Source: Escherichia coli | Lineage (GTDB): Bacteria; Pseudomonadota; Gammaproteobacteria; Enterobacterales; Enterobacteriaceae | Direction: 5' to 3' (one strand) | DNA length: 64,000 nt | NCBI RefSeq assembly: GCF_045037415.1 | Contig: NZ_CP173438.1 | In this document: in pieces, positions 39,001-42,000 of the stretch | Layout: the number at the start of each line of letters is the position of its first letter | Numbering within the stretch: the stretch's first letter is position 1 | Made by a program: the position numbers

Positions 39001-42000
39001 CTGCTGCTTTTTAAAATGGCGTTGAATGCGCCTCCGGCCCCGATAATCAGCAAAATATTAGCAATAGAACCGAAGCCATTTTCCGTATGTGTGAGCATTG
39101 TCCCCATGCTCATATGCTGGCGTATACCCAACACATAATAGGCGACAAACACGGCGATAAACATGGCAGTAATAGGGTTGCCAATAAACTCAAGCAAGGT
39201 ATAAAAACCACTCTCACGCGCCATATTCAATTCGGCAATCGTTTTAACCAACATCAGCGCAATGGGTAGCAGTATGGTGAATAACGTTGCGCCTAATGAC
39301 GGTAGTGTTTTTTCATCGCGAACTTTGAGATCGGCAAACTCTGTGGGTACAGGTTTAAAGGGCAGTCGTTGACCCAGAAATTTAAGGAAAAGTGGGCCAC
39401 CGATCAGTGATGCCATCAGCCCAACCAGCAAACCGTAGACGATCACCGAACCGATATCTGCGCCAAGCTTATTGGCAACATATAAAGCAGCCGGATGTGG
39501 GGGAACCACGCAGTGCACTGCCATCAATGCGGTACACAGCGGAATGGCCAGCTTTAACAATGAGGTATTGGTTTTTTTGGCAATTGAAAAAGCCAGAGGA
39601 ATCAATAGCACGACGCCCACTTCAACAAACAGCGTGATGCCGCAAATCAGGCCAACCAGCACCATAATGACATCAGCTGAAAGCCAGCGACAGCGTTGAA
39701 GTGTCAGACCAATTCTTTCTGCGGCCCCGGATACTTCCATCATTTTTCCCAGTATCGTGCCCAGGCCGATAACCGCAGCAAGGAACCCCAGCGTTCCGCC
39801 AATTCCACTTTCAATAGCATTTACCATATCCAGTGGTCCCATACCCATCATCGTTCCCACGAAGAAGCTGGCCAGCAACAGCGCCAGAAACGGGTGGAAT
39901 TTGAACTTCACGATGGTCAGTACAATTAACACGATGCTGATAAGCAGCGTGCTCACAACCCAGATTTGAGAGTGCATATCTCACCTTCCCCTGTGATTAA
40001 CCTGATGATATTGGACAAAAAAACAACGCAGGCTGACAAACGATAAAATTTGCCTTTCACATGAGCTAAATTGCATCAAGGGAGTGATTTACATCTAAAA
40101 ATGAAGGTGAATTGAGATATGGTTCACTTTAGCTCACCTTACAGCTGAAATTTTGCCGCTATTTTTTTACACTTAAGAGAAAAATGAGGTGATTATGGAA
40201 CCCCTTCGTGAAATAAGAAATCGACTGCTTAACGGCTGGCAACTATCAAAACTGCATACTTTTGAAGTGGCTGCCAGGCATCAGTCCTTCGCTCTCGCGG
40301 CAGAGGAATTGTCGCTGAGCCCCAGTGCGGTAAGTCACCGTATCAATCAGCTGGAAGAAGAATTAGGTATTCAGTTGTTTGTTCGTTCCCATCGCAAAGT
40401 GGAATTAACGCACGAGGGGAAACGCGTTTATTGGGCGCTAAAATCGTCGCTGGATACCCTGAACCAGGAAATTCTTGATATCAAAAATCAGGAATTATCG
40501 GGAACGTTAACGCTGTATTCCCGGCCCTCTATCGCCCAATGCTGGTTGGTGCCCGCATTAGGTGACTTTACACGCCGCTATCCGTCTATTTCGCTCACCG
40601 TGCTCACCGGTAATGACAATGTCAATTTGCAACGTGCCGGAATCGATTTGGCAATCTACTTTGATGACGCGCCGTCAGCGCAACTGACTCATCACTTTCT
40701 GATGGATGAAGAAATCCTGCCTGTATGTAGCCCGGAATACGCTCAAAGACATGCTTTAACCAACCAGGTAATTAACCTTCGCCACTGTACGTTGCTCCAT
40801 GACAGACAGGCCTGGAGCAACGACTCCGGTACGGATGAATGGCATAGTTGGGCGCAACATTATGCGGTTAATTTGCCGACATCTTCGGGAATTGGCTTTG
40901 ATCGTTCTGATTTAGCTGTTATCGCCGCGATGAATCATATTGGGGTGGCGATGGGAAGGAAACGCCTGGTACAAAAAAGACTTATCAGTGGTGAGCTCGT
41001 CGCGCCGTTTGGCGATATGACGGTGAAATGCCATCAGCATTATTACATCACCACATTACCGGGCAGGCAGTGGCCAAAAATTGAGGCATTTATTACCTGG
41101 CTAAGAGAGCAGGTATGTCAGTCTTGTCAGTATCAGTGATACCGGGGATACCGGGGATACCGACAATATGGAAGGGCTCATTGCCCTGAAAACAACATTG
41201 GTGTCGGATGTACCGGGCCGCAGACATTGCGCTCCGTCATTTGTGCGGCACAGCCCATCACAGTGATAAAGTTTCTCAGTATGTATCAGGGATCTACACG
41301 CAGCAGCTTAAGGAGGCCGGATTGCAAGCATCAACAGGGCGTACAGGCGACTCGTATGGCAGCGCGATGGCGGAGAGCATCAATGATCTTTACAAAGCGG
41401 AATACACCATAAGAGCTGGAAAAATCGTGCAGAAGTGGAACTGGCCACACTTACGTGGATGGACTGGTATAACAATCGACGTTTACTGGAAAGGCTGTGG
41501 CACATCCCTCCGGCTGAAGCAGAAAAAGCGTATTATGCTTCTATCGGAAATGATGAGCTGGCAGCCTGAGTTCACAGATAAAACACTCTCCAGGAAACAC
41601 GGGGCGGTTCAACTGACAGACATCACAAATCCCCGGGTGGGGATTTGTGTATAAGAGACAGAGCCTAGCTGGGGGCTGTGCACAAGAAAACGGCTCCCTG
41701 TTGTGGAAGCCGCTATAGTGCCGCAGTTTAAGGACCGGTCAACTGCTCCTTAACTGATCCGCATTGTGCGTGAAAGCAGACTTTTGGGGTCATTACATGT
41801 TTGAAAATACATTCATAATAATGCCGCCACTAATAATCAGCAACATGGAGAATATGGCAGGTAAATCGGGCTTTTGTTTATAAAGAATCATCGAGAAAAT
41901 TGTCACGCCAACAATCCCAAAGCCGCACCAGAGTGAATAGGCAACACCAACCGGAATAGTACTCATTGCTCTGGTCAGAGCGAAATAACACGTTGAATAA

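Follow-up and report, generated by a model that had tools for sequence, protein, structure and literature searches.

The window, by which we mean the whole 64-kb stretch of E. coli DNA analysed here, corresponds to the UTI89 island that carries cdiBA, a copy of dsdCXA and the cutCD microcompartment cluster. The locus of interest lies between dsdC and the genes for SMR transporters, and its order is dsdC, a fragment of an IS3-family element, a short palindromic stub that we assign to ISEc13, a relic of an IS4-like element, and the SMR genes together with the cut cluster. The features to which we refer throughout are the following:
41184-41611, plus strand: 3' fragment of an IS3-family (IS629-like) element, recognised by a partial Pfam rve match and by identity to IS3 copies.
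41612-41661, minus strand: solo left (OE-like) end of ISEc13, the outermost 50 bp of the element; 41661 is the tip, and the interior, formerly leftward, is missing; 100% identical to an intact copy.
41624-41649, no strand assigned: subterminal stem-loop of the ISEc13 left end, with 11-bp arms and a 4-nt loop.
41643-41661, minus strand: 19-bp terminal repeat CTGTCTCTTATACACAAAT, a presumed transposase-binding end, identified by its match to the Tn5 outside and mosaic ends and by transposase homology.
41662-41766, minus strand: relic of an IS4-like ('insZ'-type) element, namely its left end and leader, the tip being at 41766; identified by identity to K-12 and IncF sequences.
41714-41689, minus strand: terminator-like hairpin inside the IS4-like relic, from a terminator scan.
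55427-56736, minus strand: complete IS3-family element of 1310 bp, in the opposite orientation to the fragment at 41184-41611.

A first-pass annotation of this DNA had described an 11-bp perfect inverted repeat next to the IS fragment, and both of its arms were recovered in the sequence: CACAAATCCCC (41624-41634) and GGGGATTTGTG (41639-41649) are 100% complementary and enclose the loop GGGT. It placed the feature at 41612-41660, but the string that it quoted spans 41613-41661, so that its coordinates were off by one; the unit with homology in other genomes is 41612-41661 (50 bp). Read from 41661 on the minus strand, this unit is CTGTCTCTTATACACAAATCCCCACCCGGGGATTTGTGATGTCTGTCAGT, the first 19 bases of which are CTGTCTCTTATACACAAAT. 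Apart from this palindrome, the window holds no perfect hairpin with a stem of 11 bp or more and a loop of 3-8 nt. In first-order Markov simulations of the window, the mean number of such hairpins was 0.11, and at least one appeared in 9 of 100 runs. With up to 3 mismatches allowed, the window has a single occurrence of the 23-mer GGGGATTTGTGTATAAGAGACAG (0.00 expected). As RNA, the minus strand of the 50-mer folds with an energy of -22.1 kcal/mol (z = -5.5 against shuffled sequences).

We searched with 41612-41800. The matches resolved into two independent pieces, and the first 50 bases of the query matched many genomes at 100% identity. In O157:H7 OK1, AVS0223, the plasmid p2009C_3612-1 and Nissle, the 50 bp run inward into a transposase gene, which is annotated as 'IS4/Tn5 family transposase DNA-binding protein' and carries the Pfam domain Tnp_DNA_bind. 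This gene starts about 115 bp inward of the 50-bp unit, roughly 165 bp from the tip. At loci L001, L002, L004 and L005, the identical 50 bp lead inward to the transposase gene, and the gene was found just inside the end at L001, L002, L005 and L007. On the outer side, the flanks beyond ...AGAGACAG are unrelated from locus to locus, which indicates that ...AGAGACAG is a true element tip and that the hairpin lies inside the element.

An intact copy of this element is present in strain Z1323HEC0355 between ybaY and an MGMT-family gene (L007:1501-3050). Its 1550 bp encode a 457-aa protein with the PGAP product name 'IS4-like element ISEc13 family transposase'; the name ISEc13 for the stub rests on this NCBI product name. 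The copy begins with the 50 bp of the window and closes with ...GAGATCTGATCAAGAGACAG, and the stub is 100% identical to its start over the 49 bp aligned by BLAST, or 50/50 when the tip base C is counted. As read here, the left inverted repeat of ISEc13 would be CTGTCTCTTATACACAAATCCCC. The right tip is CTGTCTCTTGATCAGATCT, a 19-mer that our literature search also found in primers of Tn5-mutagenesis papers and that we take to be identical to the IS50 inside end. The transposase aligns over its full length to the Tn5 transposase structures 4DM0 and 1MUH (E = 4e-82) and scores 508 bits against the NCBIfam model transpos_IS4_3 (cut-off 160); Pfam Tnp_DNA_bind and DDE_Tnp_1 were both matched in the transposase genes of the reference copies. 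An 8-bp direct repeat, CCGCCCGG, flanks the intact copy; the Nissle copy has no direct repeat, and the stub has only one end. Of 5426 complete E. coli genomes, 3150 carry the ISEc13 left end. In the published literature that we searched, ISEc13 appears only within lists of mobile elements.

We therefore consider it very probable that the palindrome is the outermost 50 bp of a dead ISEc13 copy, stranded among IS debris in a pathogenicity island. The suggestion in the first-pass annotation that it could be a solo end of an IS4-family element is thus borne out: the 50 bp are the left end of ISEc13, and elsewhere a Tn5-like transposase gene adjoins them. Searching the 64-kb window for further ISEc13 DNA returned nothing beyond the stub, and neither a second OE-like tip nor an IE-like tip was found in it at up to 3 mismatches. 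Both a transposase gene and another ISEc13 end are missing from the window, which leaves the stub inert, a remnant rather than an element; it cannot move and has no demonstrated function.

The 19-bp tip agrees with the Tn5 outside end (OE) at 17 of 19 positions, with the mosaic end (ME) also at 17 of 19, and with the inside end (IE) at 13 of 19, in keeping with the match of about 17 of 19 to an outside or mosaic end that had been noticed beforehand. For OE and ME, we used the reference sequences in the oligonucleotide table of PMC3347997. Inside the tip, at 41646-41654, lies the DnaA-box-like motif TTATACACA, which is also present in the Tn5 OE. This motif is the DnaA box of the Tn5 OE. By its homology to the Tn5 enzyme, the transposase of a live ISEc13 would bind and cut at the 19-bp tip. 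The exact 19-mer CTGTCTCTTATACACAAAT had no occurrence in the papers covered by our literature search.

On its left, the stub directly abuts the IS3-family fragment: the IS3 terminal sequence ...GGGGCGGTTCA ends at 41611, and the homology to ISEc13 begins at 41612. In other E. coli, copies of the IS629/IS1203 type share 87-90% identity with the fragment (41184-41611): those in O157:H7 genomes and those named IS1203 reach 87-88%, and no common IS3-family copy exceeds about 90%. Identity to the corresponding 3' portion of the complete IS3-family copy at 55427-56736 is 84%. These identities of 84-90% make the fragment IS629-like but not IS629. The earlier label 'IS629 fragment' is accordingly kept as to family and likeness and given up as to IS629 proper, in view of the 87-88% identity to the O157:H7 copies.

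On its right, the stub adjoins a second relic. In K-12, a frameshifted 'IS4 family transposase' pseudogene lies between tdk and adhE, and the sequence just upstream of it shares 92% identity with 41680-41766; 41662-41765 are 88.9% identical to IncF plasmids. These plasmids preserve a small hairpin, CCCCCAGC-CTA-GCTGGGGG, uninterrupted by ISEc13; in the window, 41662-41675 (AGCCTAGCTGGGGG) is the right half of that hairpin, and the ISEc13 tip sits in its loop. The plasmid p2009C_3612-1 has the same tip-flank junction, followed by about 140 bp of the ISEc13 left end and then by IS2. This shared junction indicates that the ISEc13 insertion is older than the IS3 event. A scan for RNA families returned two sub-threshold matches and no others, both outside the stub: ctRNA_p42d at 41680-41714 (30.8 bits, with 50 needed) and snR77 at 41811-41898 (27.6 bits, with 50 needed).

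The junctions on which a history of the locus can be built are directly observed. The order of events that we infer would begin with ISEc13 entering the loop of the hairpin beside the older IS4-like relic. An IS629-like element of the IS3 family would then have landed 50 bp inside ISEc13, and a later loss would have removed the remainder of ISEc13 together with the 5' part of that IS3 copy.

The fragment and the full IS3-like copy at 55427-56736 bracket the block of SMR-transporter and cut genes, together with the stub. In strain 2020N08-094, the bracketed block is reversed: dsdC and a chimeric IS3 fragment are joined to the TetR side, and the stub, still fused to an IS3 right end, lies on the other side of the block. 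We searched for 3-bp duplications around both IS3-like copies and found no consistent pair in either orientation. The stub helps to reconstruct the assembly of the cut (choline utilisation) block and its inversion between IS3-like copies. Its biological weight is otherwise small, that of one more IS scar beside the cut block in a pathogenicity island of phylogroup B2.

The stem-loop is native to the ISEc13 end. The Nissle copy retains a stem of 9 bp, and a K-12 relic between yabQ and rluA, 72.6% identical, has a 9-bp stem with an altered loop, followed by a T-run. The right end of ISEc13 has a hairpin of its own, with 13-bp arms. In transcripts entering from outside, the left stem-loop may fold and insulate the transposase gene, and our best guess is that the hairpins at the ISEc13 ends act on RNA reading in or out, by insulation or by stabilisation.

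Could the hairpin have acquired a role at its present position? Together with the hairpin of the IS4-like relic, it might end or stabilise the minus-strand transcripts of the SMR and cut genes, or insulate dsdC. In favour are the stability of the stem (minus strand, -22 kcal/mol) and its position, 130-180 bp downstream from the last gene on the minus strand, the end of which is at 41793. Between that gene and the stub stands a hairpin that resembles a terminator and has a T-run (41714-41689), and a T-run also follows the hairpin of the K-12 relative. Against this, the ISEc13 hairpin is followed here by no U-tract, and our scan of 41100-42200 called neither an intrinsic terminator nor a promoter at the stub, the only terminator-like site in that interval being 41714-41689 on the minus strand. 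Moreover, descent from the IS wholly accounts for the presence of the hairpin. We thus regard such co-option as unlikely, and it is in any case compatible with the explanation of the stub as an ISEc13 remnant.

A different proposal concerns how the palindrome arose. The terminal hairpins of ISEc13 could be preferred points of survival or breakage, yielding palindromic 'double-tip' relics by a distinct pathway of decay or mobilisation rather than by random truncation. Such relics might arise through hairpin-templated (snap-back) copying or as minimal transposase substrates, and the palindrome would then mark a separate route of IS decay or mobilisation. We consider this quite improbable. On this reading, each ISEc13 end is made up of a tip and, subterminally, an inverted partial copy of itself, and there are three candidates: the stub in the window, trimmed 1 base outside the quasi-palindrome; a palindrome between trmL and lldD, perfect over 35 bp and carrying two IE-type tips; and one between gndA and ugd, perfect over 78 bp when its inverted flanks are included and carrying two OE-type tips.

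Another reading would make the unit itself an autonomous foldback MITE of 49-50 bp, with arms CTGACAGACAT-CACAAATCCCC and CTGTCTCTTATA-CACAAATCCCC as outward tips, mobilised in trans by ISEc13. Both arms start with CTG, the left boundary that the unit has in the window falls where the quasi-palindrome ends, and perfect 'double-tip' palindromes do exist elsewhere (50 bp and OE-type at gndA-ugd, 35 bp and IE-type at trmL-lldD). One observation here counts against the remnant reading, namely that the IS3 junction falls exactly 1 base outside the extended quasi-palindrome (CTGACAG...CTGTCAG). However, outside the 11-bp core the inner arm and the tip share only 6 of 11 positions, and nearly all genomes have the 50 bp joined to the ISEc13 interior: a probe of interior plus tip was covered over at least 80% in 3181 of 3252 records from E. 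coli genomes. Among the matches sampled, the sole tip-only match was the locus type of the window itself, and the isolated copies appear to descend from a single locus. In addition, the gnd-ugd palindrome is present in 6 genomes only, at one locus, and neither solo palindrome (gndA-ugd or trmL-lldD) has direct target duplications. A miniature element is therefore very improbable, and we retain the interpretation of the unit as an ISEc13 remnant.

Finally, the first-pass annotation had also raised the possibility that a tagmentation (Nextera mosaic-end) adapter was carried into the assembly at a contig join. The 16 bases from the tip do equal the start of the 19-bp mosaic end, CTGTCTCTTATACACATCT, but the match stops after base 16 (17 of 19 overall), and the continuation is unmatched, agreeing with two Nextera read-through adapters at only 23 of 34 and 20 of 33 positions. 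Of 5426 complete E. coli genomes, 308 contain at least 80% of the interval 41400-41900, among them UTI89 (NC_007946), UM146, NU14 and ST131 strains, and the 30 best matches listed are all 100% identical over the full 501 bp. The exact junction of the window is present in 308 genomes. UTI89 is a Sanger-era assembly of 2006 and thus older than tagmentation. An adapter origin can be set aside as practically excluded: the region around the stub recurs in 308 independent complete genomes, UTI89 and UM146 among them, which refutes it in the very terms that the annotation had proposed, and the sequence occurs naturally as the end of an IS with a transposase gene of its own.

The resemblance has a practical consequence nonetheless. 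The ISEc13 left end and the Nextera/Tn5 mosaic-end adapter agree in their first 16 bases, so that tolerant trimmers and contamination screens may clip or flag genuine reads, and knowing this end as native DNA averts false calls of adapter carry-over.

Among the closest known systems is IS50/Tn5, whose transposase is a full-length homologue of the cognate transposase of ISEc13. The stub shares with the Tn5 OE and ME the 19-bp end architecture, the CTG tip and the DnaA-box-like core TTATACACA. At position 4 of the tip it has T, like ME and IE, whereas positions 17-18 are AA in the stub, AG in OE and TC in ME. The other end of ISEc13 agrees with the IS50 IE at 19 of 19 positions. A perfect hairpin overlaps each ISEc13 end, with 11-bp arms on the left and 13-bp arms on the right; to our knowledge, IS50 has no such end hairpins at those positions. 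The target duplication typical of IS50 is 9 bp, and the repeat flanking the intact ISEc13 copy is 8 bp.

Compared with ISEc13 itself, the stub shares the terminal 50 bp, including the 19-bp tip and the 11-bp stem-loop, but of the full 1550-bp element it keeps these 50 bp alone, without the transposase gene and without the right end. Solo IS ends and IS scars, such as the K-12 'insZ' IS4-family pseudogene and the yabQ-rluA relic, are likewise non-functional fragments at an island boundary, nested in IS debris. The stub is shorter than most annotated IS relics and is unannotated in RefSeq. As an unremarkable relic of an insertion sequence already in the catalogues, it belongs to a known kind of feature.

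Small hairpins with a C-rich and a G-rich arm (C-rich...G-rich) seem to serve as insertion sites for ISEc13, an IS4-family element of the IS50 type, which would enter them at the apex, although the sample is small. The sites concerned are as follows.

L007:1480-1501 and 3051-3070: flanks on either side of the intact ISEc13 copy of strain Z1323HEC0355
Window 41662-41675: right half of a hairpin, next to the 50-bp ISEc13 left-end stub

Examples include AACCCTCT[CCGCCCGG]AGAGGGTT, where the insertion within the hairpin is accompanied by an 8-bp repeat, and CCCCC[AGCCTAGCT]GGGGG. 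In several other flanks of this small sample, a C-run lies 10-15 bp outside the ISEc13 tip.

The stub is itself bordered by the remains of other insertion sequences, and a full IS3-family copy lies farther along the window, as listed here.

Window 41184-41611, + strand: IS3-family (IS629-like) copy, inverted relative to its partner
Window 41662-41766, - strand: unannotated IS4-like "insZ"-type relic, comprising the left end and leader of a second IS
Window 55427-56736, - strand: IS3-family (IS629-like) copy, inverted relative to its partner

Within the IS4-like relic, window 41714-41689 (- strand) holds a terminator-like hairpin and its T-run; the Rfam match of this site to ctRNA_p42d falls below threshold (30.8 bits vs the 50 needed). 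The relic sits immediately downstream of the final gene in the SMR/cut block and may act as the terminator of this block. The block, about 13.8 kb of SMR-transporter and cut choline-utilisation genes, is flanked on both sides by the inverted IS3-family copies. In strain 2020N08-094 (loci L013 and L014), the block is found in the inverted orientation and a chimeric IS3 fragment adjoins dsdC. A group II intron (ltrA) splits the full IS3 copy of that strain.

Directly after the dsdC stop codon lies a 9-bp tandem repeat, TACCGGGGA (window 41141-41163; L013:2481-2512), present in two copies in the window compared with three in strain 2020N08-094. Relative to K-12 dsdC, this junction also seems to have brought a replacement of the final few dsdC codons.

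Two palindromes of paired IS tips and an old relic were detected at three further E. coli loci.

L008:1500-1534: 35-bp perfect palindrome, CTGTCTCTTGATCAG-GAGAT-CTGATCAAGAGACAG, between trmL and lldD in T7Express
L011:1473-1550: 78-bp perfect palindrome between gndA and ugd in strain 600029
L009:1501-1635: old ISEc13-like left-end relic, 72.6% identical, between yabQ and rluA in K-12 W3110

The trmL-lldD palindrome consists of two outward-facing IS50-IE/ISEc13-right-end tips, and no direct repeats were found around it. Among the matches listed, it is single-copy and 100% matched in many E. coli genomes, which seem to share one location. In the gndA-ugd palindrome, GGGA separates two complete ISEc13 left tips of 23 bp, which are accompanied by mutually inverted flanks (cccccagcatagct / agctatgctggggg). 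This palindrome looks like an inverted duplication of a single IS-target junction and occurs in just 6 of 5426 genomes. The K-12 relic is carried by about 1700 genomes and adjoins a frameshifted "transposase DNA-binding" pseudogene; it has kept the ISEc13 hairpin, there followed by TTTTTTGTTT, a combination that looks like a terminator.

At the other end of the element, the IE-like right end of ISEc13 (L007:3018-3050) forms a hairpin with 13-bp arms that overlaps the final transposase codons (SLDQEI*). This end matches the IS50 inside end at 19 of 19 positions, and the three GATC (Dam) sites within its hairpin suggest, at the sequence level, that ISEc13 could be under IS50-like methylation control.
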